Under the pieces are notes generated by a model, which searched no databases, was not told the origin of the DNA, and was given only the letters and a program-made list of their open reading frames with translations. The translations under genes and the position numbers were made by a program. A DNA stretch of 64,000 nt from Myxococcales bacterium (GTDB lineage: Bacteria; Desulfobacterota; Binatia; HRBIN30), in assembly GCA_037445065.1 (NCBI GenBank), contig JBBILD010000012.1:32001-96000 (forward strand), written 5' to 3'. Below, piece after piece: positions 21 to 14,526 of the stretch. Positions within the stretch are counted from its first letter, which is position 1, and each line of letters begins with the position of its first letter.

Positions 21-351
21 CAAATCTTCCGCCTTGGGGCTGCTACGTCCGAGGACGTGGTCGCCCAACCCTTAACGTCGAGGTTCACGGAACCCGGCCC
101 ACTGGGTGGCCGTCCAACCACCGAGCTCCCTGCAGTGGGTGTCCGTGGATCAATGGTGGATCAATGATGATGGGTGTCCATGGACCAATGCACTGCAGTG
201 CTGCGCAGCGGCCATCGTCCAGTGGATGTCCGTCGACTCCTGTGGTGTGCAGCGGCCATCATCCAGTGGGTGTCCACGGACTTCTGTCCACGGACTTCTG
301 GACTATCCGTGGACCACTGGCGCACACGGACCGGCTTGCAAGTGGGTGTCC
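21..351 (+). repeat. Cluster 1 of (A)GTGG(G/A)TGTCC motif repeats; includes copy A (about 21-155) of a ~135 bp dispersed direct repeat
   Basis: Motif at 134-144, 171-179, 221-231, 265-275 and 341-351; tandem TGTCCACGGACTTC at 271-298; 21-155 aligns with 3054-3189. Confidence 0.85.
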
Positions 352-475
352 GTCGAAGAACGTGCATCGAAGGCCAATGGACGAACTCTGGGGCACCCGG
401 CCTGGCCGGTCCCAACGCCCGTTTCGGGGAAACCGGGACAATGTCCGGGAGATCAGGCCGAGAGGCAACGGGCTC

Positions 476-1264
476 TTACAGCGTTGGTGGGGGAAAGGGC
501 CAGTTCGAGGTTTCGGTACCGCCGTCGATTTCGAAAACCTTCCCTGTCACCCAGCTCGATGCGGGCGAAACTAAATAGAGTGCCGCAAGCGCAATATCCT
601 CTACGGCGCCCAAACGGCGCATTGGAGTCAGTGCCTCCATTTTCGCCCGCAGGTCATCGTTCAAAAACGGAGTCAAGGCGGACGTTTCCGTGGCGCCGAC
701 CGCGATCGCGTTCACCCGAACTTTCGGAGCAAACTCGTGACCGAGCACCCTCGTCATGTGCGAAAGCGCAGCCTTGGCCGTGCTGTAAGCTACGAATCCC
801 GCCAGCGGAAACCGCCCTGCCGCGGACGAGATGTTGAGCACCACTCCACCACCGGCAGTTCGAAGCATATGGGGAACTGCCAACCGAGTGAGCAGGAACG
901 CCGAAGTCACGTTGAAGTGAAAGGCCTCCTCCAACATCCGTTCGCTCGTGTAAAGAGCCTCGCAGGGCGGGGTTCCGCCAGCATTGTTCACCACAATGTC
1001 GATGCGGCCAAAGTGCCGCAACGTTTCTTCGACCACGCGTTCGAGATCTTCCCTCCGATTGACGTCGCAAGGAACTGCCAGCGCGCGCCCTCCCAACTTC
1101 TGCACCCGAGCTGCGGTGTCCTCGATCTGTTCCCTCGTACGTGCCGCGCAGACGACATTTCCACCCACCTCCGCGAATGCCAGCGCACACCCTTGGCCGA
1201 TTCCTCGGCCTGCGCCCGTAACGATCGCAACTTTTCCGTCCAAACGAAAACGATCTAGGATCAC
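476..1264 (-). CDS. Short-chain dehydrogenase/reductase (classical SDR, hydroxysteroid dehydrogenase-like)
   Basis: TGAGRGIG, NNAG, NISS and YSTAK motifs; GTG at 1264 follows GGAGG (ORF track starts at 1279). Confidence 0.92.
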   Translation of the reverse strand: MILDRFRLDGKVAIVTGAGRGIGQGCALAFAEVGGNVVCAARTREQIEDTAARVQKLGGRALAVPCDVNRREDLERVVEETLRHFGRIDIVVNNAGGTPPCEALYTSERMLEEAFHFNVTSAFLLTRLAVPHMLRTAGGGVVLNISSAAGRFPLAGFVAYSTAKAALSHMTRVLGHEFAPKVRVNAIAVGATETSALTPFLNDDLRAKMEALTPMRRLGAVEDIALAALYLVSPASSWVTGKVFEIDGGTETSNWPFPPPTL

Positions 1265-1285
1265 TTCTCCTCCCTGCACGCCCCA

Positions 1286-2359
1286 TCAGGCCGGAAGCCG
1301 GTAAAACCGCTCCGCATTGAGCGCCAAGATCTTTTCCTTCACCGCCGGGCCTAGATCGGTTCGCTCGCGCAACGGCCGGGTGGATTCCGGCCACTCACTG
1401 TCCCAATGCGGGTAGTCGCTGGCGAACATGATGAAGTCCGAACCCAGGCTGTCGACCGCAAGCGGGATCCCGCACTCGCCCGCCTCGCAGCTAACGTAAA
1501 GCTGCCCGCGCGCAATGTACTCCTTAGGCTCATGTTTGCACTCCGGTGTTAGCCGTCCGCGCTTCTCCAAATGTTCCTCGATCCGCTCCATCAAGTAGGG
1601 CACCCAACCCACGCCCGACTCGAGCAGAGCGACGCGCAATCGCGGATGGCGTTCGAAGACGCCTCCGAGGATCAGCGCTGTCGACGCCACCATCATGTCA
1701 AAAGGAAAGCTGATGACATGGACCTTGAGGTAGTTGTCGAATCGCTCCGTCCCCAGCTTCGGCAAGTGGATTCCGGGAGCGCCATGGATTCCAAGCGGCA
1801 TGTCCATTTCTTCGGCTGCGTCGTAAAACGGATCGAGATCCGGATGGTCCAGATTTCTCTCGCGTAGCACGGCCGGAATCATGGTCACGACAAGTCCCAG
1901 GTCTTTCGCTTCGCGCATGACCGCGATGGCGGACGCCACATCCTCGATGGGAACCAAGGCGGCTCCAAAAAACCTTCCCCGACCCTGCTTACAGTACTCC
2001 GCAAGCCAACGATTGTATGCCCGCGCGAACTCGGCCGCAAAACTCTGATCTACAAAGCCGGGAAGACCCAGGGCAGCACTGGGAAAAAAGACGAGGCGAT
2101 CTATGCCGTCCCTATCCGCGTCCGCCAAAACCCCGTCAGCGGTAAAAGGATTGGCACCGCGTTCCAGGCACATCCCTTCCTCGGCTCTACAGCCCGCACC
2201 CGGGCCGCGCGACTGTGGATACGGCCGACCTTCAATGTACAAGGCCGTGTCTCCATCCCCTGGGTCACTGAAACGGATCTTGTCAGGGAACCGCTCGAGT
2301 AACTCTGCCATCAACTCCCTGCCCTCGATCACATGGGCGTCAGCATCGACCACCTTCAT
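1286..2359 (-). CDS. Amidohydrolase family protein (Amidohydro_2)
   Basis: N-terminal DADAH, DPFYDAAEEMDMPLGIH, C-terminal FASDYPHWD and NAERFY. Confidence 0.92.
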   Translation of the reverse strand: MKVVDADAHVIEGRELMAELLERFPDKIRFSDPGDGDTALYIEGRPYPQSRGPGAGCRAEEGMCLERGANPFTADGVLADADRDGIDRLVFFPSAALGLPGFVDQSFAAEFARAYNRWLAEYCKQGRGRFFGAALVPIEDVASAIAVMREAKDLGLVVTMIPAVLRERNLDHPDLDPFYDAAEEMDMPLGIHGAPGIHLPKLGTERFDNYLKVHVISFPFDMMVASTALILGGVFERHPRLRVALLESGVGWVPYLMERIEEHLEKRGRLTPECKHEPKEYIARGQLYVSCEAGECGIPLAVDSLGSDFIMFASDYPHWDSEWPESTRPLRERTDLGPAVKEKILALNAERFYRLPA

Positions 2360-2490
2360 GCTTGCTTCTCCTCAATCCGTGAACGCTTGTTCACCCAGGA
2401 TTGTCGGAAAACTCCGGGCAGGTCAAGCACGCTGGAACCTCCCCGTGGCCGACGTGCGTGCAAGACTTTGGCCTGCAGACTACTCATGTT

Positions 2491-2511
2491 GTAGGGAGCC
2501 CTGCTCCCTAC
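2491..2511. repeat. Perfect GTAG...CTAC hairpin (REP-like)
   Basis: GTAGGGAGC-CCT-GCTCCCTAC, 9-bp arms. Confidence 0.5.
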
Positions 2512-2911
2512 CGAGGCTGCCAAACTCCCAAACGCTCCCCCGACTCAAGTCCGCTCCTCCCCCAAGTGAGGCACCGCGCCGCTCGCAATCGCTCCAGCGG
2601 TACTCGCGGCGGAGCCGTCCTCGCTCCATCTCTTGCTCCACGACTGGACCGTCGCCCGCTCGGGCGTGCCGAGGACACCGCGCACGGAAAGCGTCGGCTC
2701 GCGTTGCGACCAAAGCCGCGAAATCACACGCGAGGTCTCTATCGCCCTTGCTGGCCTCCCGTCCGCGCAAGGGTCCGCATTAGCCCGGTAACGGAGCGCT
2801 CGTAGGCTCTCTTCTAGGGCTGCTTGAGCCGCAGAAGGCTTCCGGCCCGGCGAGCCAGCCTGTCCCTAGGAGACAACGCTAGCCTCCGGAACGGGCGACA
2901 AACCACCTCAC

Positions 2912-3212
2912 TGGTGTCCATCAGCATCTCCCAACCAACCCGTGATTACTTACCGCTCCATGTTGGCGTCCAACCGAGAGCCCAGGGGTGAGTAAAGTGG
3001 ATGTCCACGCTCAGAGGTGGGCGTCGGAAAAGTGGGTGTCCAAGGAAGAGACTCAAATCTTGCGCCTCGGGGCTCCTACGCCCGAGGAGGTGGTCGCCCA
3101 ACCCTTAACGTCGGGGTCCACTGAACTCGGCCCACTGGGTGGCCGTCAAACCAACAAGCTCCCTGCAGTGGGTGTCCATGGACCAATGCCGTCCAACGGG
3201 CGTCCGTGGACT
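2912..3212 (+). repeat. Cluster 2 of GTGG(G/A)TGTCC motif repeats; includes copy B (3054-3189) of the dispersed direct repeat
   Basis: Motif at 2996-3006, 3031-3041 and 3167-3177; degenerate copies near 2912 and 3198. Confidence 0.85.
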
Positions 3213-3340
3213 TCTCGTCGACAAATTTGGGACCAGCAGCGTAATTTTTTGTCAACAGAAAATTGCGTCCTCCCGGCCGTGGGAGCGCATCAGTCGCGGG
3301 CCTCCCGAGCTGAAAGGACGAAGCGAAAGGAGGTCCGAGG

Positions 3341-5268
3341 ATCGTCAAACGGGGTTCATGGTTTGGGATTCCTTTGTTTCTTCTTTCCGCCGCCTGGGCG
3401 GGGCTGGCCCTGCTGTGGCCGGTGGCGCCATTGGCAGCCGCCCAATCCCAGGTGGGTTTGGCCCAGGCCAAGGTGGCGCTTTCCAGCATGGATCGCGGCT
3501 GGGTGCCCAACGCGGGCCAGTGGGACGAGTAGGCCGCCTTTGCCGCACCGGGTTATTTCGGCACCACGTGGGTCACTAAAGAGGGCGAGCTGCGGCACGT
3601 GTTGGTCCAGAAAGAAGACCGTGAAAAGGCCGAGGACCGCGGGGCCGTGAGAGGCCGCTTCAGCAAGCCCTGCCCCAGCCAGCGCTGGGTGGTTTCGGAG
3701 CGCTTTGCGGGGGGCAAGGTGCAGGCCATCCGTCGGCAGGAGGAGCTTCCCACGCGGGTGAGTTACCTACTTGGCAACGACCCGGCCAAGCACCGTTCCA
3801 ACCTGCCCACCTACCCGCGCGTGTGGTTGGGGGAGGTGTGGCCAGGGGTGGAGGTGGTGCTGGCAGCTCAGCAGAAGACGGTCGAAAAGCTGTTGATCCC
3901 GAAGCCGGGGACGGAAGCAAGCCAGGTCCAGGTGGCCCTTTCTGGGGCTGAGGGTCTGGAGTTGGCAGACCGTGGCGCGCTGAAGGTGCGCACGGGTTTG
4001 GCGGAGGTGGAGCTTTCCCCACCGGTGGCCTGGCAAGAAATCGGCGGCAAACGGGAGCCGATGGTGGTGGGTTACCAGCTTTTGGGGCCCAACCGCTACG
4101 GCTTTGTTCTGGGCGAGCACCGCAAGGACCTGCCGGTGGTCATTGACCCGATCCTGCAGAGCACGTACTTGCGAGAATCAGACGAGGACGACGCCAACTC
4201 GCTTGCCCTATCCTCCACCGGCGAGGTGTACGTGGCGGGGCGGACCGACTCGACCGGCTTCCCCGTCACCGCCGGCGGGGCGGACGACACCTTAGATGGG
4301 TTCTCCGACGCCTTCGTGGCGTGGCTGGACCCCGGGCTCACGAGCATCAACCGAGCCACTTACTTGGGGGCTCGGGCGGCCACGTTGCCACTAGCCTCGC
4401 CCCTTCCTCAACCGGGGAGGTGTACGTGGCGGGAGTTACCGGCTCGACCGACTTCCCCGGTACCAGCGGCGGGGCGCAGGGCACGTACGGGGGTGGCTTG
4501 ACGGACGCCTTTGTCTCGCGGCTGTCGGGCGGGTTGGCGGCGACGCTGGTGGCGGATATGTCGGCGAATGCCCCCAGCGTGCCACCCTCGTTGAGCCCCG
4601 CGGGCGTGTATTCCGGGTTGAGCTTCTCCTGCACCAACGCGGGCCCCGACCCCACCATCAACGCCAACCGCAGCATTGTGGTTTCCGCTGGCACCGTGAG
4701 CGGCGTCAGCTGCACGCCTGGGGTGCCGGTAGCCAGCCTGCCCTCGAGCAGCAGCATCAACTGCAGTTACACCTTCGCCGCCCCAGGCAGCCCGGGCGGT
4801 GGCAACACTTCCCAGCCCGGCGTGGTCTTCACCGTCACCGCCAGCGCGGACAACGACAGCAACGCCGCCAACAACACCGCCAGCTCCGGTGCCAGACCCA
4901 TTCCCCTGGTGGATGCCCTGAACGACAGTGCCACCTTCCCTGCCAACACCGGCCAAACCTTCAACCTGGCCACCAACGACCAGGTGGGCACGGGCGCCCC
5001 ACCAGCGGGCGCAACCTACAGCCTGCAAAGCACCACCTGCGCTGGGGCTTCGGTGAGCGCTTCGGGTGTCGCCACCTTTACCGTGCCTGCTTCCGGCAGG
5101 TGCACCATCACCTACCAGCTTTGTTACATCTCCGGTTGCGACACGGCCCCCTTGACGGTGGCGGTGGCGGCTGAGCCCGTCCCCACCTTGGACCAGTGGG
5201 GGCTTTTGCTGCTCACCCTTGCTCTGGGAGGGACGGGTGTGCTTTTGCTGCGCCGCCTGTGGGCGTAG
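3341..5268 (+). pseudogene. Disrupted secreted SBBP beta-propeller-repeat surface protein with IPTL-CTERM sorting tail
   Basis: Signal-like N-terminus, WVPNAGQWD, SYLLGNDP, LPVVIDP, GEVYVAGxTxSxxFP repeats, C-terminal VPTLDQWGLLLL..RR. Lesions: no start codon (ATC at 3341 after AAGGAGG), in-frame TAG 3530-3532, frameshift in the G-run at about 4366-4370. Confidence 0.85.
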
Positions 5269-5290
5269 GGCAGGCTCGAGCTGATGACAG

Positions 5291-5322
5291 CCGGGGCGGC
5301 ATCCGCCGCCCCGGTTTTTTTT
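5291..5322 (+). terminator. Rho-independent terminator
   Basis: CCGGGGCGGC-ATCC-GCCGCCCCGG followed by T8, just after the stop at 5268. Confidence 0.9.
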
Positions 5323-5430
5323 GCCCGCCGCGTGACGTCGCCGCCCCACCCACGCCATGGCGAGCGGAGCGTCGCGGAGCGAAGTCCGCAGGACGGCGAG
5401 GCCGCACTGCGGCCGTGGCGGGCTTCACGG

Positions 5431-5459
5431 GTCATTGCGAGCGGAGCGAAGCAATCCCC
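5431..5459 (+). repeat. GTCATTGCGAGCGGAGCGAAGCAATCC REP-like palindromic element
   Basis: ATTGC...GCAAT arms; resembles a dispersed intergenic repeat of GC-rich bacteria (from memory); only one copy here. Confidence 0.45.
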
Positions 5460-5520
5460 AGAGAGAGGGAGAGCGGTGACCCACGGTTAGGTGGAGAGCC
5501 CTGGAGGGACCGGGGATGGG

Positions 5521-5534
5521 AAAAGTGGGTGTCC
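5521..5534 (+). repeat. Isolated AAAAGTGGGTGTCC motif copy
   Basis: Exact match to the motif in clusters 2 and 3. Confidence 0.7.
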
Positions 5535-5610
5535 ACGGGAGGCTCACGGGAGGCTCGGGAGGGAAGGGGTGATGGAGGGGGTGGGGCGGGTGCTATAGCG
5601 GGCAGCCGGT

Positions 5611-8586
5611 ATGCGTCGAACACGCGGATTGGTTTCCCGACTTCGGCTCTTTGGTTGTGACCGTAAGGCGAGTCGGGCGGTTGGGATGCTACAAACCGAC
5701 GACGTGTGTCCGCGAGCGGGCTTTCTGCACCACTGCGCCTGGATCCTTGCAGTCGGCCTGATCTTGGCGTCGCTGGATGCGAAAGCGGCGGACGCAGCGC
5801 GCTGGCAAGCTGAATGCCCGCGGTGCACCGCGGCGAAAAACTACATGGCGCAGGCTGCAGCCCGAGAACACCCAGTGGACACACTCCCGCCTGAGCCGCA
5901 AAGCTGCGCCGCTCCAGGGCCGCGGCACTTGCACTCCGGCACAAAGGAGCAGTGCTCCCAGCCGGCGGCGCCCGCAGTAGCGGGATTGGAGACATCCACC
6001 GACCTCGGTCCGTCCAGTGCTGGTGCCGCTCGTCACGCTCCCGCAGTGCAACGGCCTTGCTCAGAGCTCGGCAACGCCGCTTCGCTCGCACCCGCGCCAG
6101 CGGGTTTCCCTGCGAGACCCGTCAGCGGTCGCCGGCTGTCGCAAGACGGAGATCCTGACGCCCGCAAAACCGCTGATCGCGACGAACGTTCCCACTCTGC
6201 CAGTGCGTCCGAGAGAAACCTCGTACCACCGCTTCTGAGCGCACCCAGAGAGGATGTTTCGGAGAGCCCGCGGCACGCTTTGCCGCAACGGGCCTCCGAG
6301 GCCACCGGCCTGGTCACGGACACCAACCGTGTCCCCGATTCCTCGCATGACGTCGGGCGCTGGTACGCGCTGTTGATCAACGGCGGTGGCACGAAGGAGC
6401 AGAATTACCAATCCCACCTCCTTCATCTGCGGCAGATCACCGACCTCTTACTGGCTGCCGGGGTGCCAGCGTCGCGCATTTACGCGTTCAGCAGCGACGG
6501 CAGCGACCCGGGTCGCGACCTTGCCGTGCGCGGCTTGCCCGCACACCAGGATTTCTGGATCGTCCGCGGCACGCGTGCCGAAGGCTACTTGCGGCCAGCG
6601 CTCCTGTTCGAGAATTCCGAGCTCCCTCCCTTGCGCCTGCGCCCCGCAACCCGGTCTGCCCTCAACCAGTGGTTTGCAACCACCGGCCGCGAGCTGCGCC
6701 TGGGCGACGCGCTGCTCGTGTTCGTGACTGACCATGGCACGAAAAACCCGGATGACCCGGACAACAACTGGATTGTGCTCTGGGGACGGGACGAAAAGCT
6801 CTCTGTGGATGACTTTGCTACCCTTCTCGATCGACTCCGGCCCGGAGTCCGCGTTCTCACCATCATGTCGCAGTGCTTTTCCGGGTCCTTCGCCCGCCTC
6901 GCCTGGTCTGGGGCCAGCCGGAGTTCGCCTCCCTACAAGCAGCCACGCGACCGCTGCGGCTTCTTCTCCACCGTCAAGGAGAGGCCCGCGTACGGCTGCT
7001 ACGCTGAAAACCTCGGCCGCAAAAACATCGGCCACGCTTTCCATTACTTACAGGCATGGGCAGAAACCGGCAGTACCATCCGCGCGCACGAAGAAACACT
7101 GGTGCGTGATGCGACGCCCGACGTTCCTTTACGCAGCTCGGATGAGTATTTGCGAACGCTGCTCCTCCAAGCTGCCGGGCAAAACGGCGAGGAGCTGTCC
7201 GCGCTCGTGGACCGCCTGCTCGCCCGCGCCTGGGAAGATGCGACGCGCTGGGAGCCGGAGGTCCGCCTGCTCGATCGGGTCGCAAGCGCGTACGGACTCT
7301 TCACTCCCCGTAGCTTGGCAGAGCTTGAGGAGCGTACCCGCCTCCTGCCCGATATCGCCGAGCAGTTGCGGAACGTGAGTTCCGCATGGCGCGGCGCTTG
7401 GCAGGATGCGAGCGAAGCCAATTGGGGCCGCTTCACCGAGGCGCACCCTGAATGGCAAAAGCGGCTTGCCGCCTTCGACCAGGGACGACTAACCGACCAC
7501 GAGCGCAGGCTGCTCGCCGAAGAACTGATTCCCGACCTGCTCTCCTTCACCCGAGCCTCGGACCAAACGTATCGCACGCTTCGCCTGCTTCGCCGCAAGG
7601 CCAGAGCCGCGGCTGCAGCTAGTTACCGCCTCGAGGTGCGCCAGGGCGCCCTGCTTCGCTTGGAGCGGCAACTCACTCGGATTGCCGGACTCCTTTGGCT
7701 CGAACGACACGCGTCTCACAAGGAGCGTGAGACGTTCGCTTCTCTCGCACGTTGCGAGGAATGGTTGATCCCCGACCGCGAACTGCCCCACCCGCGGTTG
7801 CTTCTTGCCCGCCCGTTTCCCCCGTTCGACCACGACGTTACCCGCGCGCAGCGGGCGTTGCCGGCCTGGATGGGCATCCAATTCCGCGAGCCGCGCGAGA
7901 AGCTTCGTACCGAATTTGCCCTTTCGCGCGGCGCCGCCGCGGTAACCACTGTTTACCCGGATTCCCCGGCTGCGCGGGCTGGTATCCAACAGGGAGACAT
8001 CCTGCTCGGCCCACCGGAGGCGCCCTTTCGCGACAAGGGCGAGGTGCGGCGCTGGATCATGCTGTCCCGCATCGGCGCGCCCAAGCAACTCCAGCTCTTG
8101 CGGGATGGGAAACAACACACGGTGACTCTCACTCCCGCACCGTATCCTTTCAAATGGCCCGAACTTCCTGGCCCGCCTGCAGTGGGTAGCGTCGCCCCTG
8201 CACTTCCTCCGCTCTCGGCATACCGTGGCGAGCTGCCGGCCATTGCCCAAGGCTCTCCCGTGCTTCTCTTTTTCTGGGCAAGTTGGTGCGCCGCTTGTAA
8301 GGCCGCTCTGCCCGAGCTGCTCGCCTTCGAGCGAGAACGCGCCGTGCCGGTGCTGGCGATTACCGACGAGCCGTCGGAGCGGCTCGAAGCATTTTTCCGG
8401 CAACCAGACCTACGCTTCCCCGACCGGGTTGCCATTGACGAGTACCGCAAAGCCTTTGTGGCTTACGGTGTCAGTGGAACCCCGACCTTCGTACTCCTGG
8501 ACGGTGCGGGTCGCGTGCAAGCATCTCATACGGGCTACGACCGCGGCAAGGGCCTACCATTCGAGGGGTGGAAATGGGCGCCGTAA
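5611..8586 (+). CDS. Multidomain protein: peptidase C13/caspase-fold domain + PDZ + TlpA-like thioredoxin domain
   Basis: YALLINGG, LVFVTDHG (His), IMSQCFSGSF (Cys); WMGIQF..VYPDSPAARAGIQQGDIL (PDZ); FWASWCAAC..GTPTFVLLD (TlpA). True start may be the ATG near 5686, which precedes a signal-like stretch. Confidence 0.8.
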   Translation: MRRTRGLVSRLRLFGCDRKASRAVGMLQTDDVCPRAGFLHHCAWILAVGLILASLDAKAADAARWQAECPRCTAAKNYMAQAAAREHPVDTLPPEPQSCAAPGPRHLHSGTKEQCSQPAAPAVAGLETSTDLGPSSAGAARHAPAVQRPCSELGNAASLAPAPAGFPARPVSGRRLSQDGDPDARKTADRDERSHSASASERNLVPPLLSAPREDVSESPRHALPQRASEATGLVTDTNRVPDSSHDVGRWYALLINGGGTKEQNYQSHLLHLRQITDLLLAAGVPASRIYAFSSDGSDPGRDLAVRGLPAHQDFWIVRGTRAEGYLRPALLFENSELPPLRLRPATRSALNQWFATTGRELRLGDALLVFVTDHGTKNPDDPDNNWIVLWGRDEKLSVDDFATLLDRLRPGVRVLTIMSQCFSGSFARLAWSGASRSSPPYKQPRDRCGFFSTVKERPAYGCYAENLGRKNIGHAFHYLQAWAETGSTIRAHEETLVRDATPDVPLRSSDEYLRTLLLQAAGQNGEELSALVDRLLARAWEDATRWEPEVRLLDRVASAYGLFTPRSLAELEERTRLLPDIAEQLRNVSSAWRGAWQDASEANWGRFTEAHPEWQKRLAAFDQGRLTDHERRLLAEELIPDLLSFTRASDQTYRTLRLLRRKARAAAAASYRLEVRQGALLRLERQLTRIAGLLWLERHASHKERETFASLARCEEWLIPDRELPHPRLLLARPFPPFDHDVTRAQRALPAWMGIQFREPREKLRTEFALSRGAAAVTTVYPDSPAARAGIQQGDILLGPPEAPFRDKGEVRRWIMLSRIGAPKQLQLLRDGKQHTVTLTPAPYPFKWPELPGPPAVGSVAPALPPLSAYRGELPAIAQGSPVLLFFWASWCAACKAALPELLAFERERAVPVLAITDEPSERLEAFFRQPDLRFPDRVAIDEYRKAFVAYGVSGTPTFVLLDGAGRVQASHTGYDRGKGLPFEGWKWAP

Positions 8587-9551
8587 ACCCGCGCCCGGCC
8601 CCTGCGCCCGTGTCCCGGGCGACAGCCCGGGCGGCGTACCGCGACGAGCAGCTCGGCATTGCCCTTGCCTTGGCCTGTGCCGTCAACGCCGCCTTCGTCC
8701 CGGCCGTAGCCAAGGTGACCACCGCCTACACGGACGCCGCTACGGTGGCGTTTTTGACCACCGTGATCGGGGCCGCCGTCGCTGTTGTTGTGCTTGCCGT
8801 ACGTGGGATGTTATCGGCACTGTGGGCACCGCACCAGCGCGTGTCCCTCTGCCTGCTCGGCATTCTCGGCACTGGCGTCTCTTTCTACCTCTTCTTTTCG
8901 GGAGCAGAGAAGGCAAGCGCCGTGGAGACGGTTCTCTGCCTGCAAATCGAACCCGTGTACTCGCTCCTCCTCGCGTGGTGGTTCCTAGGCCAGCGCCCCA
9001 CCCGGCAGCGCGCTGGGAGTACAGTGGTGATCCTGCTCGGCCTCGGGCTCGCACTCGGGGTCCGCGACTTCCCTTCTTCAGCAGGAGTGGCGTACTTGCT
9101 CGCCACACCCCTGTGCTGGCAACTCTCTCATCTCATCGTTCTGCGCAAACTTGCCGGCGCTCCGCTCGAGGCCCTCACCGCCGCTCGGTACCTTTGGGGC
9201 GCTTTGGTTTTGGGGCTCCTCTGGCTCGCCACGCCAGCTCGCGGCGGCTCCGTGGTCGAGCTTCCGCCGAGCGCGTGGATTTGGCTCGCGATCCAGGGGG
9301 CCGTACTCAGCTACGGCGGAACCACCCTGTGGTACGGAGCGGTGCGGCGCATTGACCTGGCACGAGCTACCGTGCTGGTGGTGCCAACCGTACCGGTGCT
9401 GGCACTGATCGTGAGCTTTCTGCTTCTCGGCGAGGTGCCCAGCTTCCGCGAACTTGTCGGCGTCTCGCTGACCATTGTCGGGGTCACCACCTTCGCTGCC
9501 CGCCCAGCCCAGCACAGGTGGCCGCGGAAACCCGACGACGTCGGAGCCTGA
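8574..9551 (+). CDS. DMT/EamA family transporter
   Basis: About 10 hydrophobic segments in two repeats; PVYSLLLAWWFLGQR and LIVSFLLLGE. Confidence 0.9.
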   Translation: MGAVNPRPAPAPVSRATARAAYRDEQLGIALALACAVNAAFVPAVAKVTTAYTDAATVAFLTTVIGAAVAVVVLAVRGMLSALWAPHQRVSLCLLGILGTGVSFYLFFSGAEKASAVETVLCLQIEPVYSLLLAWWFLGQRPTRQRAGSTVVILLGLGLALGVRDFPSSAGVAYLLATPLCWQLSHLIVLRKLAGAPLEALTAARYLWGALVLGLLWLATPARGGSVVELPPSAWIWLAIQGAVLSYGGTTLWYGAVRRIDLARATVLVVPTVPVLALIVSFLLLGEVPSFRELVGVSLTIVGVTTFAARPAQHRWPRKPDDVGA

Positions 9552-9726
9552 GCGCGCTTCCATCGTGGGCCCTCGGGTGGGCTTCGCGTGTCGCCTGTCA
9601 GCGACACACTCCGGCAGATCCAGCTGGAGCCGCGCCCCCACTGCCTCGAGCTTCGACCGGGCTGGTTCCGACCCGACCCAGTCGCGCCCGGCTGGTCACG
9701 GCCGCGGCAACTGACCGAGAGGGCAA

Positions 9727-10031
9727 AGCGGATGTCCATGCTTGGACGTGGGCGGGGGAAAAATGGGTGTCCAACGAAGAGAGCACGGTTAGGCGGAGGC
9801 CCGAGGTCGGACCGGCGATCGGCAAAGGGGCGACGGAAAGTATGGGTGTCCACGGGGAGAACTGATCGACGGCAAGGTGCATGAGGCGGAGGGGGGGTAG
9901 AGATGCCTAAGGGGGAGTTACGGACGCCAACGGTAAGAGTGGGTGTCCCAGGAAGGAACCAGCTTCGCGGGCGGTCTGAAAAGTGGGTGTCCACGATAGG
10001 TCTCTCCGGGCGGTCCGAAAAGTGGGTGTCC
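9727..10031 (+). repeat. Cluster 3 of GTGGGTGTCC motif repeats
   Basis: Copies at 9727-9737, 9762-9772, 9843-9851, 9938-9948, 9982-9992 and 10021-10031; 25-bp direct repeat CGGGCGGTCYGAAAAGTGGGTGTCC at 9968 and 10007. Confidence 0.85.
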
Positions 10032-10086
10032 GTGGGAGGTCCCAGGAGGTCCCCACTCTGGACGAGCTTGGCGCGGGCGTCTCCAC

Positions 10087-10345
10087 TTGCCCGCCGAACC
10101 GAGCGAGGTTTCGACCCCCGACGCTCCACCCACGGAGGGTGGGTGCTGTGGTCCCGAGAATCCTCGCCACTGGGCCTGGACCTATCTAATGCGCCGCGTC
10201 TTCGACCTCGACGTGCTCGCCTGCCCCCGCTGTGGCGGTCGCATGTCGGTGCTCGCGTACGACGAGGCGGAGTCCCTAACACTCGCCGCCCCCCGCGCGG
10301 CTCGGCGCGCGCCGTCATCCACGTGCGGCTCGACCGTCCTACCGG
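10087..10345 (+). mobile_element. IS91/ISCR-family transposase C-terminal remnant
   Basis: WAWTYLMRRVFDLDVLACPRCGGRMSVLA matches the W..L.RVF..D...CP.CGG.M tail of IS91-like transposases; no catalytic domain present. Confidence 0.75.
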
Positions 10346-10537
10346 AGCTAACGGCTCCGGGCGGAGCGGCGGCGAAGGTCCGCGTTCGGCGGTTATGTCT
10401 CCACTCGACTGAGAAGGGCGCTGAAATCGCCTATCTTCCGAGCATCCGAGCGCGGCGCTGCGCCCCTAAATCGAGCAGGCGGTGCGCATCTGTCCGCGCC
10501 AGGCGATTTGCATCGTGGAGGATTGAGGGCGCGGCGA

Positions 10538-10891: not shown

Positions 10892-11917
10892 TCACCGGCT
10901 CACCTGCGCGAAAAGGCGCAGAAAGTTCCCCCCCATGATCCGCGTCACCTCTCCCGCTGAGAGACCGCGCCGGCGCAACCCCTCCGCAATGGACGGGTAC
11001 TGGCGGTGATTGACGACCACCGGACGATAGTTCGCAGCCATGTCGGTTCCGATGCCGACGTGATCGACACCCACCGTCTCGACGAGGCGCAGGATCTCGT
11101 CGAGGAACTGCTCGAAAGTGTCGAGCGTCACGCCGGCTGGCCAGGCGCCGATCAACCCGCCCCCGTCGGCAACCAGGCGGGCGTGCTCCACGCTCAACAG
11201 GCGGGGATGCGCGCGCGCGCGGGCAAGGTGGCTGTGGGAAATCATCACCGGCGCCCGCGAGCGTTCAACGACGGCAGCGGTGGTCGCGAAAGACGCATGC
11301 GCCAGGTCGATCAGCATTCCTAACCGGTTCATCTCCCCGACAACCGCGGCGCCAAAGTCCGACAGGCCCCGATGCTCCGGCGGCTCAGTTTGCACGTCTC
11401 CCACCTCGTTGACGCGATAATGCACCAGCGTGACCGCGCGCACGCCCAGCCAGTACGCTTCGGCGAGTCGCTCGAGCCGCCCCTCGAGAAAGTCAGCGCC
11501 TTCACATCTGAGCAGCACACCAACGCGCTGCTCACGCATCGCTGCCTCCACGTCCGTGGGCGAGAGGACGACGCGGACCTCGCCGGAGGCCGCGAACTGC
11601 CGCAGGGAATCGAGCTGGCGACGGTGATCGGCGTAAGCTTCGCCGGGCTCAAACGGCCGCCGCACGCATAGCAAGCGCTCAGGGTCGGGCCCGAGCACGC
11701 GCAGGTCGCTCACCGTGGAGAACGACGCGACACTGACCCCGCCGGCCTTCAGGTCGGCCACCGCCTCGCCCATCGCCGGCGCCCCCAGAAGAGCAACGAG
11801 CGGATCACCCACCTGGCAGCCGAGGAGGAAGCAGCGACCCGGATGGGCGTGCAGATCCACCCAGGGCCCCATCTCGCAGGCCTCCCGGCGCGGCGGTGAC
11901 TCTTGCCCGTGCGACAT
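10892..11917 (-). CDS. Membrane dipeptidase (peptidase M19 family)
   Basis: VDLHAH, EGADFL, EMNRLGMLIDLAH, ISHS, DHVGIGTD, IMGGNFLR; ATG at 11917 follows GGAGGG. Confidence 0.92.
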   Translation of the reverse strand: MSHGQESPPRREACEMGPWVDLHAHPGRCFLLGCQVGDPLVALLGAPAMGEAVADLKAGGVSVASFSTVSDLRVLGPDPERLLCVRRPFEPGEAYADHRRQLDSLRQFAASGEVRVVLSPTDVEAAMREQRVGVLLRCEGADFLEGRLERLAEAYWLGVRAVTLVHYRVNEVGDVQTEPPEHRGLSDFGAAVVGEMNRLGMLIDLAHASFATTAAVVERSRAPVMISHSHLARARAHPRLLSVEHARLVADGGGLIGAWPAGVTLDTFEQFLDEILRLVETVGVDHVGIGTDMAANYRPVVVNHRQYPSIAEGLRRRGLSAGEVTRIMGGNFLRLFAQVSR

Positions 11918-11930
11918 CGAGCCCTCCTGC

Positions 11931-13562
11931 TCACCGCGGCGGCCGCGGGCTTTGGCTGGCGGCGACGTAGCGCGCCAGGGTGGTGGACATGGCCCCGCGC
12001 CGCAGCATCGCTTCGATGAGGAAGAAGCGGCCGCGGGTGGTAGCAGCGCGTTCGAGCGCCGCCGCCAGCTCCTGGCGCGTCGCCACGCGCACCCCCTCGC
12101 CGCCGAGCACGCGGGCCAGATCGGCGTAGTGCCAGTCGGCAAGGTCGTGGCACCGCGATGCCGGCTGAAAAGCGCGCAGCATCTCCCACCCCGAGTTGTT
12201 GAACACCACCACAATAGGATCCCAGCCGTAGCGCTGGCAGTTGCCGAGTTCGAAGCCGGTCATCTGAAAGGCGCCGTCGCCCACCAGGATCAGCGGCCGC
12301 GTCCCCATTGCCACCTGCAGGCCCAGACCGGCCGGCACGCCGTACCCCATGGTGGCGTAGTAGGCCGGCGCGGTGAGGTGCGTGTAGGCGATGCGCGTGG
12401 CCGTGAACACGCAGTCTCCCATGTCGGCGGCGATCGGCAGCGGCCCGTGCCGGTCCATGAGGTCGTTCACCGCGCAGGCGATATCCTCGGGCGCAATCGG
12501 CGCGGCGTCGGCGGGCAGGCCGCGAGGGTAGCGAACAGGTGGGATCGCCGGGACCGAACGCGGACGCGGCGGCCGGCGCGCGGCGTGCTCGAGGAGCGCG
12601 TCCACGAAGGCTTCCAGCGGCACCGGCGAGTAGGTGTGGAAACCGAGCGTGACGCGGCGGTCGAGCGCCTGGATGGTGCGCCGCAGATCGATCCGCGTCC
12701 GCGAAGCAGCCAGATTGCTGTCGGACAAGATGACTCCGAGGAGCAGGAGGGCATCCGATTCTTCCACCAGACGCGCGATCTCCGCTTCACCGGCTACGCC
12801 GAGGTACGTGCCGAGTGGAGGGACGGGGGCATCGGCAAGCAGACCGCGCCCCATGAAACTCGTCACCACCGGCAACTGCAAGCGGGCCGCCAGCGCCGCC
12901 ACTTTGTCCTCGATGCCGTACCGCTTGACTTCGACGCCCACCATCAGCACTGGCGCCTGCGCCCGGGTGAGGGCCGCGAGCACCTCGACGGCACACGCCT
13001 CCACCATCTCCCGGTCGACGGGAGAAGGCGTCGAGGGCGGCACCGGCGCACACGGGGCGTCGACGAGATCGCGCGGAACTTCGATATACACCGGCTGCGA
13101 GAACTCGCGCGCACTCTGCAGGACGCGGGCTATCGCCACGGGTGCCTGGATGGGTCGTCGAGGACAGCCTGGTCGCAGGTGATCTCGCGGAACACGCGGA
13201 GCTGCGATTCGAGGGTCTTGCCTTGATGGTGCAGCAAGAGGCCGCCGGCGCGTTCGCTGACGCCCGGTGCACCCGAGATGACCACCAGCGGTGATTTTTC
13301 AGCGAGCGCACACGTCGTCGCGTTGACGATGTTCAGTCCGCCGGCACCGTAGGTGACCACCGCCACGCCGAGCCCGCTTCCAGCTCGCGCCGCGGCATCG
13401 GCGGCGAAACCGACGGCGGGCTCGTGGCTCAGCGTGTAAAGAGGCAGGATGGCGCTTTCTTCGATCACCCGGAAGAGGGGTAAGGCGAAGTCCCCGGGAA
13501 TGCCGAACAGCGCTGTCGCGCCGCGCGCGCAGCGCATGCAACAACGTTTCCGCCAGTGTCAT
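11931..13562 (-). pseudogene. ipdC: Indolepyruvate/phenylpyruvate decarboxylase (ThDP enzyme) with two frameshifts
   Basis: MTLAETLLHAL, FGIPGDFALP, SHEPAVGFAADA, LLHHQ, GDGAFQMTG..NN; frame breaks at about 13520-13530 and about 13145. Confidence 0.88.
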
Positions 13563-13899: not shown

Positions 13900-14195
13900 C
13901 CCACTCGACCGTCTGGTGCGCGAGCTGTCGCTCACCGGCGCGACCATGCTGGTGGTGTCGTCGGTCATCGGAGTGGGGGTTTTTCTCGCCCCGGGTCGCG
14001 TCGCCCAGGTGCTGCCGCCTCCGGTTCTCTTCCTCGCCGCGTGCGTAGGTGGCGGCCTGCTCTCCCTCGCCGAGGCCCTGGCCAACGCCTCGCTCGGGGT
14101 GATGTATCCGCACGCCGGCGGCGACTACGTCTGCCTGCGCCAGGCCTGCCATCCGCTCGCCGGATTTCTGGTCGGGTAGTTGTCGTTCGTCGTCC
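13900..14195 (+). pseudogene. N-terminal fragment of an APC-family amino acid permease
   Basis: LVRELSLTGATMLVVSSVIGVGVF..P and YPHAGGDYV.LR..HPLAGFLVG, then TAG where Trp is expected; remainder absent. Confidence 0.8.
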
Positions 14196-14526
14196 GTCCT
14201 ACCGGAGGTAACGGCTGCGGGCGAAGTGGCGGGGAAGGCCGCGTTCGGCGGTGACGTCACCTCTCGATTGAGAACGCCGCTACAAGCGCCTAGCTGCCTC
14301 GAAGCACGAGGGAGCCGCCGACCAATGCCCGAGACCCTGATCATCCCCTGACGGTTCCGTAGCCCGGAACAGTCCGGAAACAGCGGATACAGGTGCGGCG
14401 TCGTCGCGGTGCTGCTCGACGGGGACGCCGAGGCGGTCGCCCTTGTGCGTTCACGGGTCTCGGAAGTCGTCGTCGAGCGCAAGTAGTCGGATTCCTAGCC
14501 ATAGCGGCTACCAGGGGAACGGGCGC

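Follow-up and report, generated by a model that had tools for sequence, protein, structure and literature searches.

The 64-kb stretch of DNA analyzed here (in the following called the window) corresponds to positions 32001-96000 of contig C12 of a Binatia genome deposited as a Myxococcales bacterium (G000; 3.79 Mb in 46 contigs). Within its first 10 kb it carries four clusters of a short motif, (A)AAGTGGGTGTCC, which reads GGACACCCACTTT on the other strand. Our comparisons make it likely that this motif is the end sequence of a mobile element of the 'TIRtron' type and that it is cognate to the transposase of this element. The element would consist of a gene for a HUH/tyrosine (Y1) transposase of about 320 amino acids (aa), assigned by its sequence to TnpA_Y1 subclass 2.3, between inverted copies of the motif. 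The four window clusters would then represent solo ends and short end-derived units, that is, non-autonomous relatives of the left end of the element. The involvement of a HUH enzyme is supported by the linkage of gene and motif, by their covariation in related genomes and by the element boundaries read in other phyla.

Distribution of the motif in the window and in the genome

The sequence-only reading of the window had described about 15 plus-strand, intergenic copies of the motif in four clusters, and this description holds. GTGGRTGTCC occurs 11 times in exact form, always on the plus strand and always between positions 135 and 10031, as compared to a chance expectation of 0.25 copies (mean of 100 shuffles, maximum 2). 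With one mismatch allowed, 14 plus-strand copies are present in the same interval, the gains being ATGGGTGTCC at 170, 9763 and 9842; a minus-strand match at 6318 lies inside a gene and is chance-like, and the rest of the window contains four isolated, scattered matches. A copy with two mismatches (CGGATGTCC, at about 9729) is part of a 58-nt repeat shared with 2994-3051, so that 11 exact and four degenerate copies are counted. None of the copies lies inside an open reading frame (ORF) with Pfam support. As to the flanking features pointed out earlier, GAAAA directly precedes 5 of the 15 copies (3032, 5525, 9763, 9983 and 10022) and GTCC-NN-GGAC follows 3 of them (170, 266 and 3168). All four clusters are oriented like the left end of the transposase gene next to them. 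Their features, all on the plus strand of the window, are:

21..155, +: 135-nt segment that makes up the outer portion of the left end, or 5' leader, of the Y1 transposase-like gene and closes with the motif at 135-144; 90% repeat of 3054-3188
135..351, +: Array 1, five copies (135, 170, 222, 266, 342) on the left-end side of the element; on the gene strand GGACACCCAC, upstream of the gene
2994..3051, +: Array 2a, two copies (2997, 3032); 58-nt repeat of 9725-9782
3054..3188, +: solo 135-nt left-end segment with the motif at 3168-3177 and without an adjoining transposase gene; repeat of 21-155
5482..5556, +: Array 3, a single copy (5525) with the 11-nt CACGGGAGGCT present twice in tandem behind it; related to 9784-9830 in its part upstream of the motif
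9725..10045, +: Array 4, six copies (about 9729 (degenerate), 9763, 9842, 9939, 9983, 10022) with a 10-nt duplication after the last one; composite of pieces of arrays 2 and 3

Three longer repeats connect these clusters and are found nowhere else in the genome, namely 21-155 with 3054-3188 (90% identity), 2994-3051 with 9725-9782 (84%) and 5482-5528 with 9784-9830 (related, 77%). Since the clusters thus have pieces in common, they most likely spread locally from the neighbouring element. Scans of the window with Rfam (gathering thresholds) and for tRNA and tmRNA gave no match, and the 135-nt repeat is therefore not a fragment of a known RNA gene.

Genome-wide, exact GTGGGTGTCC occurs 128 times, with 106 copies in intergenic and 22 in coding sequence, although non-coding DNA makes up only 14% of the genome (2972 genes, 86% coding, according to a crude codon-usage caller). 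The variant ATGGGTGTCC is distributed similarly (18 intergenic, 5 coding) and is a real variant, whereas the A variant GTGGATGTCC (4 intergenic, 17 coding) is mostly due to chance. The copies are found on both strands, and a minus-strand array (C12:29349-29652) lies directly upstream of the window. The strand lock described before is thus a property of window positions 135-10031 and does not extend to the genome. The motif forms about 50 arrays and is confined neither to a single strand nor to a single locus. The 9-mer core forms 95 same-strand groups, of which 51 are intergenic with genes on both sides. Relative to these genes the arrays are placed without bias (15 convergent, 14 and 14 co-directional in either direction, 8 divergent), which argues against a role as promoter, leader or terminator. 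Arrays neighbour housekeeping genes (for example tRNA-Thr, IF3, EngA and AspRS), and several are located at contig ends, as is the case for repeats that break assemblies.

The densest motif region of the genome is C7:190-213 kb (loci L002 and L003), where about 55 exact copies accompany transposase copy 2. Several large ORFs of this region (433-946 aa) have no Pfam or NCBIfam match, and some motif copies are located inside long ORFs. In arrays on contigs C13, C26, C27 and C33 the motif is accompanied by a CATTCGCCATTCGC-like and a GGCCACAAGGGCCGCCCCTAC-like short repeat, which suggests a composite repeat subfamily.

The transposase genes

The genome contains three Y1 transposase-like genes, two of which are intact while one has an in-frame stop codon:

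C12:30709-31677, -: P0001 (copy 1), 323 aa; 324 to 1292 bases before window position 1, with the start codon side nearest
C7:199768-200808, +: P0002 (copy 2), 346 aa; detected by an NCBIfam match
C14:56592-57590, -: copy 3, with an in-frame TGA; detected by protein search

The earlier statement that the window itself contains no intact cognate enzyme is therefore correct, with the start of copy 1 lying 324 bases outside. P0001 and P0002 are 52% identical to each other and match NCBIfam REP_Tyr_transpos with an E-value of 8e-13 and 48 bits, which is below the curated cut-off of 80. They contain the sequences SNHLHLV and SNHMHLV, respectively, FWEGRF in both, and YVDLNP or YVELNP. In an alignment of 32 homologues N64, H67, W148, E149, Y169, V170, L172 and N173 are invariant and H65 is present in at least 90%; H65 and Y169 are 104 residues apart. 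On the basis of these motifs, their length and the HuH-to-Y spacing, the two proteins fit TnpA_Y1 subclass 2.3.

The AlphaFold model (pLDDT 91.4) has a helical tail comprising residues 190-322. The best Foldseek match is 4er8_A, the Escherichia coli repetitive extragenic palindrome (REP)-associated tyrosine transposase (RAYT) bound to a REP hairpin (E 2e-4, TM (target) 0.64), followed by ISDra2, IS608 and Sulfolobus TnpA; the entries next in rank are 2ec2, 2xm3 and 2vjv, all with a probability of 0.99-1.00. A sequence search of the PDB gave nothing significant (E 0.45). The family is large, with at least 7998 clusters at E < 1e-10, and those that are named are mostly called 'REP element-mobilizing transposase RayT' or 'transposase'.

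A genome search based on Pfam Y1_Tnp returned no hit in the related genome G008 and one weak fragment in G000. The resulting impression that G008 lacks a HUH enzyme was a false negative, as the genes were found by NCBIfam and protein search; Pfam misses them because subclass 2.3 scores under its cut-off. Y2_Tnp (PF04986) was detected in neither genome.

Linkage and covariation of gene and motif

In gene orientation, all three G000 copies have the GGACACCCAC type upstream and the GTGGGTGTCC type downstream, i.e. they are placed between inverted arrays. For copy 1 the order is four GGACACCCA (window 135-351), the gene, two more GGACACCCA and five TGGGTGTCC; copies 2 and 3 have the same kinds of motif on both sides. 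Such a position is rare, as only 18 of the 2972 genes have a motif within 1.5 kb on both sides, transposase copies 1 and 2 included. Copy 3 is absent from the gene calls, and its nearest motif copies are about 1.4 and 2.2 kb away; within 2.5 kb, 25 of the 2972 genes are flanked. The single homologue of G008 has the same layout as copy 1.

We then compared relatives, 30 for counts of the 11-mer AGTGGGTGTCC and 31 for the search for homologues. The 11-mer is frequent in G008 (101 copies), G000 (69), G012 (25) and G004 (23), and the other relatives remain at background with 0-7 copies, including G018, which belongs to the same genus as G008 and has a single one. A full-length homologue of the transposase is present in 12 of the 31 genomes. 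A strong homologue is present in all four genomes in which AGTGGGTGTCC reaches 20 copies or more, and the 19 genomes that lack a strong homologue all have at most 5 copies. At 12 of 16 homologue loci examined, which include loci from other phyla, the inverted motif or a variant of it is found on both sides, the variants being found where the exact motif is rare. The end words are:

GGACACCCAC: G000, G008, G012 and one Acanthopleuribacter locus; inverted, on both sides
AGACACCCA type: G005, G017, G004, G002 and one Marinomonas locus; the downstream copies of G002 and Marinomonas differ by a single base
GACACCCACACAA: G007; on both sides by reading of the locus, with none listed there by the scripted search for inverted pairs
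GGACACGCA: G018; inverted, on both sides
GGGACAGCCAC: G027; inverted, on both sides

One exact copy of GGACACCCA is also present beside the G007 gene. The genome of G018 contains 55 clustered copies of GTGCGTGTCC as compared to 11 for the control read backwards and 9-23 in four other genomes; the G018 variant of GGACACCCACTTT is GGACACGCAC. The G018 repeat matches the end word of its own gene. Thus, the genome-wide repeat follows the end word of the resident gene, even within one genus.

Arrays in G008 fill gaps that are short in G018; before tRNA-Thr, for instance, 760 nt with eight copies stand against about 130 nt. Since the two genomes are only about 70% identical at the DNA level, exact insertion breakpoints are unreadable in this comparison. 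An ORF of 454 aa between G008 arrays is probably spurious, as it has no homologue in G000 and belongs to no family. The N-terminal module of about 60 aa of a 741-aa G008 protein has more than 50 matching places in G000. At three G012 loci (L008, L009 and L011) close inverted pairs of the form GGACACCCAC-N9-GTGGGTGTCC are present that could form 10-bp hairpins; these REPIN-like pairs were not seen in G000.

Element boundaries in other phyla

Arrays of the motif, defined as two copies 8-38 nt apart and scanned in one genome per species with taxa taken from record titles, are present in at least 124 loci of many taxa. Among the Gammaproteobacteria these include Pseudomonadales, Lysobacterales, Thiohalocapsa, Thioalkalivibrio, Marinomonas, Halomonas, Pseudoalteromonas, Aliiglaciecola and others. 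The remainder comprises Burkholderiales, Acidobacteriota (including Holophagae and Acanthopleuribacter) and metagenome-assembled genomes of Verrucomicrobiales, Myxococcota and one archaeon. The 80 loci that were fetched have one architecture, with an A-rich stretch followed by the motif and then by variable sequence. From these loci 183 flanking ORFs with a length of 140 aa or more were extracted, and a Pfam scan of 144 of them revealed no recurrent neighbouring gene family.

All five array-bearing genomes tested contain multicopy homologues of the transposase with 37-56% identity. Counting fragments and weaker paralogues as well, there are 42 matches in Thiohalocapsa, 20 in Aliiglaciecola, 11 in Pseudoalteromonas, 10 in Acanthopleuribacter and 4 in Marinomonas. 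Copies within one genome have units of about 1.16-1.26 kb in common, and in four of the five genomes the motif or a close variant is read at the element ends. The repeated unit of 1229 bp in Thiohalocapsa starts with GGACACCCA as its first letters, 72 nt before the start codon, and encodes a 363-aa protein with NHYH, FWEGRF and YVDLNP. A second Thiohalocapsa subfamily has an 18-bp terminal inverted repeat, GGACACCCACTTAGCTTG. The units of Pseudoalteromonas and Aliiglaciecola end with AGACACCCAC ... GTGGGTGTCT, and more motif copies are located just beyond both ends.

At one Thiohalocapsa locus a full copy is preceded by two partial left ends in tandem, 453 and 87 nt long and both extending from the motif on; these do not represent halves of nested insertions. 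Window 3054-3188 is the same kind of object, namely a solo left-end piece of 135 nt located 3 kb from its parent.

Variation within the arrays

In G000 the next 8 nt after the motif recur at a distance of at most 45 nt in 39 of the 128 copies as compared to 13 of 128 in the control, for which 8-mers placed 25 nt upstream were used. At the loci from other phyla recurrence is seen in 193 of 340 copies (control 101 of 340). The full motif is missing in front of 27 of the 39 and 102 of the 193 recurrences, respectively. The periods cluster at 11-14 nt, and the repeats mostly begin with the last 0-4 letters of the motif.

Close strains were compared by means of three contig sets from other samples (X2, X3 and X4; 95-99% identical), whereby joints with sides of 20-21 letters were disregarded. 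In all three, one of two 68-nt tandem units is missing, each of which has a degenerate motif and lies 0.3 kb from the gene end. On locus L197, in which window position 5610 is position 9610, the joint runs from 2353 to 2421 for X2 and from 2322 to 2393 for X3 and X4. Thus, the number of units differs between close strains.

Genes between the clusters

The ORFs around the clusters that have Pfam support are listed here; the first six had been taken for a series of unrelated accessory modules:

476-1279, -: SDR
1286-2359, -: amidohydrolase
3599-4501, +: DUF7948/SBBP
4321-5268, +: IPTL-CTERM
5611-8586, +: PDZ-thioredoxin protein (C13-PDZ-Trx), 991 aa
8568-9551, +: EamA
10892-12214, -: M19 dipeptidase

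In G008 the SDR, amidohydrolase, PDZ-thioredoxin and EamA genes are adjacent, with 53-90% protein identity, and the syntenic 10 kb contain neither a motif copy nor the SBBP/IPTL gene. As these modules are adjacent without the motif, they form a conserved block and are not captured cassettes. Among the modules, only the SBBP/IPTL gene, located between arrays 2 and 3, looks lineage-specific. It occupies window 3340-5268 with two overlapping frames (3599-4501 and 4321-5268) and is probably frameshifted. One X2 contig joins window 3053 to 5031; this evidence is thin, with a side of 66 nt and no motif at the right breakpoint. X2 has no depth over L197 7201-8400, which counts only together with the joining contig. 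The left breakpoint of the joint coincides with the inner edge of the solo left-end segment, and the SBBP gene is placed on the outer side of this fragment and not inside an element.

Before the ATG of the 991-aa gene (window 5610) a contig of the source sample has 11 extra letters as compared to the assembly. The label 'IS91 remnant' given earlier to window 10087-10330 was not confirmed, as there was no Y2_Tnp match up to an E-value of 10; the peptide with CPRCGG encoded there has only weak zinc-ribbon matches (E 0.07-0.12). The 104-nt stretch following this putative zinc-ribbon remnant (10330-10433) has a copy 3.9 kb downstream at 14190-14292 with 83-84% identity.

Proposed origin of the arrays and alternative explanations

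In the explanation that we favor, the enzyme would bind and cut at the motif, probably on single-stranded DNA like other Y1 enzymes, and would thereby move or copy end fragments in trans. The window clusters would have arisen by local spread from the neighbouring element and subsequent tandem duplication of units. Binding and cleavage at the motif as well as this mechanism of array growth are inferred from the arrangement of the sequences. The initial suggestion of a HUH enzyme acting in trans therefore survives in its Y1/RAYT-like form, by association, since the three genes are flanked by the motif and the variants match in relatives. Its IS91-like form is not supported, as no Y2_Tnp was found in G000 or G008.

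Several observations speak against this explanation. The substrates of all characterized Y1 enzymes are rich in hairpins, unlike the arrays described here, and the predicted single-stranded fold is not unusually stable for Array 1 (z -1.33) or Array 4 (z -1.82). The Pfam Y1_Tnp scores of the two proteins, 19.8 and 18.6 bits, remain below the cut-off of 23. Flanking is incomplete at 4 of the 16 homologue loci, with the motif on one side only in G009 and at the second Marinomonas locus, and with no flanking motif in G001 and at the second Acanthopleuribacter locus. One Thiohalocapsa subfamily has the motif at its left end only. Furthermore, sections of the survey of the superfamily report subclass 2.3 without REP or flanking repeats (Quentin, Siguier, Chandler and Fichant 2018, PMC6006769). 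Finally, the data fit the motif as the element's own end and as its preferred insertion target alike.

The latter point leads to the alternative that the arrays are pre-existing insertion hot spots of different origin, which the Y1 element uses as targets and does not produce. Elements of the IS200/IS605 family land next to a short target word and keep this word at their left junction. The Pseudoalteromonas, Aliiglaciecola and Thiohalocapsa elements that lie inside arrays with extra motif copies beyond both ends would agree with such a behaviour. However, the motif variant changes together with the resident gene between G008 and G018 within one genus. The inverted repeat of the second Thiohalocapsa subfamily also reaches 18 bp into element-specific sequence, and the partial left ends of 87, 135 and 453 nt begin at the motif. 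We regard this alternative as unlikely. Even less probable is the idea put forward for this window that repeated insertions at the motif assemble a gene-capture array of the cassette type, with the genes between the clusters as captured accessory modules. It could draw on the absence of the DUF7948/SBBP/IPTL gene from the syntenic place in G008, on the contig with the 66-nt side that joins window 3053 to 5031, and on a GT87 gene of G008 that, together with two arrays, occupies a position where G018 has a gap of about 350 nt between aligned flanks. The neighbourhood of SDR with amidohydrolase and of C13-PDZ-Trx with EamA in 10 kb of motif-free G008 DNA nevertheless largely refutes it for two of the three modules, and the third, the SBBP gene, lies outside the left-end fragment and not within an element. 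In addition, arrays occur genome-wide on both strands beside housekeeping genes, and the orientation of the 51 arrays (15/14/14/8) is unbiased. If the arrays are the DNA partner of the transposase, the 'modules' of the window are for the most part ordinary, conserved genes separated by selfish repeats and do not form a gene-capture device.

Equally improbable is that the arrays serve as binding platforms for a host regulator or nucleoid protein, as a promoter, operator or terminator unrelated to the transposase. Although some arrays point to a downstream gene, such as the copy at window 5525 to the gene that begins at 5611 or the divergent arrays located in front of divergent G008 genes, the downstream gene is co-oriented in 22 cases and opposed in 29. 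The occurrence of the motif is patchy within one genus (101 copies versus 1), its neighbours belong to no recurrent family in the 144 of 183 ORFs scanned, and it is tightly linked to Y1 genes. What we take to be resemblances to the DnaA box, the CsrA site and the F-plasmid nic site do not explain the data.

A more far-reaching version of the favored explanation, which we put forward with considerable doubt, is that subclass 2.3 enzymes recognise GGACACCCAC, a short end word without a hairpin that Gammaproteobacteria and Binatia have in common, and that the element spreads by one-ended copying initiated at this end. If true, this would account for tandem solo left ends such as those of 87, 135 and 453 nt and for the duplicated adjoining flank, and Y1 HUH enzymes have not been described to process DNA in this way. 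Host DNA next to the element, for instance the SBBP/IPTL gene, could also be carried along or deleted by such a process.

Comparison with known systems

Subclass 2.3 is characterized by the signatures NHYH, WE and YVDLNP, a median length of 325 aa and a median HuH-to-Y distance of 110, according to sections of PMC6006769. The protein described here agrees with these values in its length (323 aa), its NH-u-H, WE and YVDLNP motifs, the distance of 104 residues and the long C-terminal tail. The multicopy occurrence in Chromatiales and Alteromonadales described there is reproduced as well. In contrast to that description, a non-hairpin motif of 10-13 nt forms inverted arrays around all copies examined in G000, G008, G012 and G018, and the family extends to Binatia, Acidobacteriota and other phyla. 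No later work on the ends of subclass 2.3 was found in the literature, whereby the supplementary gene and terminal inverted repeat (TIR) lists of PMC6006769 and PMC3733652 were not covered and may show some. Likewise, no paper on the motif in a bacterial context was found, as literature matches to the motif word are primers and unrelated items.

A close parallel are the TIRtrons, Y1 genes with flanking inverted repeats that share GGGGWSAS and are able to form clustered families, as laid out in parts of the work of Di Nocera, De Gregorio and Rocco (2013, PMC3733652). Both systems have terminal inverted repeats and not REP hairpins around a Y1 gene (TIRYT), and the repeats occur as singles, dimers and clusters. 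GGGGWSAS overlaps GGACAC / GGGGACAC of the present motif, the GGACAC core being always present and full GGGGACAC only in Acanthopleuribacter and some G008 copies. However, the conserved word is longer here (GGACACCCAC) and identical across phyla, and the arrays contain up to 14 direct copies with variable spacers. The 26 published TIRYTs comprise 20 in subclass 2.1 and 6 in subclasses 2.2 and 2.5 and none in 2.3, as given in the parts of PMC6006769 dealing with them.

REPs and bacterial interspersed mosaic elements with their RAYT (REPtrons) likewise form a dispersed intergenic family of mixed orientation that is tied to a flanked Y1 HUH gene. Repeat and enzyme covary, and the fold matches 4er8. 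The REPtron layout of inverted dispersed repeats around a Y1 gene is found in the three G000 copies, G008, G012 and G018. REPs, however, are palindromes of 20-40 nt with a GTAG or CGTC tag that are recognised as hairpins, whereas the motif described here is not self-complementary and its arrays fold no better than shuffles; only the inverted pairs of G012 could form stems. The gene is also twice as long and multicopy in several hosts. With the IS200/IS605 elements IS608 and ISDra2 the elements share the Y1 HUH core, and the single-gene units of about 1.2 kb in Thiohalocapsa and Alteromonadales behave like insertion sequences. IS200/IS605 elements, however, have a TnpA of 150 aa with a Y---Q motif, subterminal hairpins and no inverted terminal repeats, as opposed to 323 aa, a Y---NP motif and an inverted terminal motif.

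Other systems were considered and rejected. Ssn nucleases with SRM / NTS hairpin repeats are similar in that short repeats lie in mosaic intergenic arrays on either side of the gene for the small DNA enzyme to which they belong, but, going by the description in PMC11893778, TGTCC(A/C) is not covered by the SRM search word HGTCWY..., SRMs are hairpins of 20-50 nt, and the enzyme is of the GIY-YIG and not of the HUH type. IS91/ISCR elements (Y2 HUH) do not apply, as PF04986 is found in neither G000 nor G008. An integron-like array, in which co-oriented cassettes at a single locus each end in a structured recombination site, does not agree with the location of the genes between clusters on both strands, the genome-wide arrays and the motif-free G008 block; no search for an integrase gene was made.

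Among the class-2 branches of the Y1 HUH transposase superfamily, subclass 2.3 is the longest and alone in being multicopy, and the DNA partner of its enzymes reportedly could not be identified. If the arrays are this partner, they provide a candidate substrate for the enzyme that can be tested at the bench, and a word of 10-13 nt in place of a hairpin would add to the modes of recognition known for Y1 enzymes. A motif identical in several phyla would also be a simple marker for annotation and would explain assembly breaks at these positions. Overall, the kind of system is known from REP/RAYT REPtrons and TIRtrons; what differs here is the branch (2.3), the lack of a hairpin, a 10-nt word that is the same across phyla and signs of one-ended partial copies.

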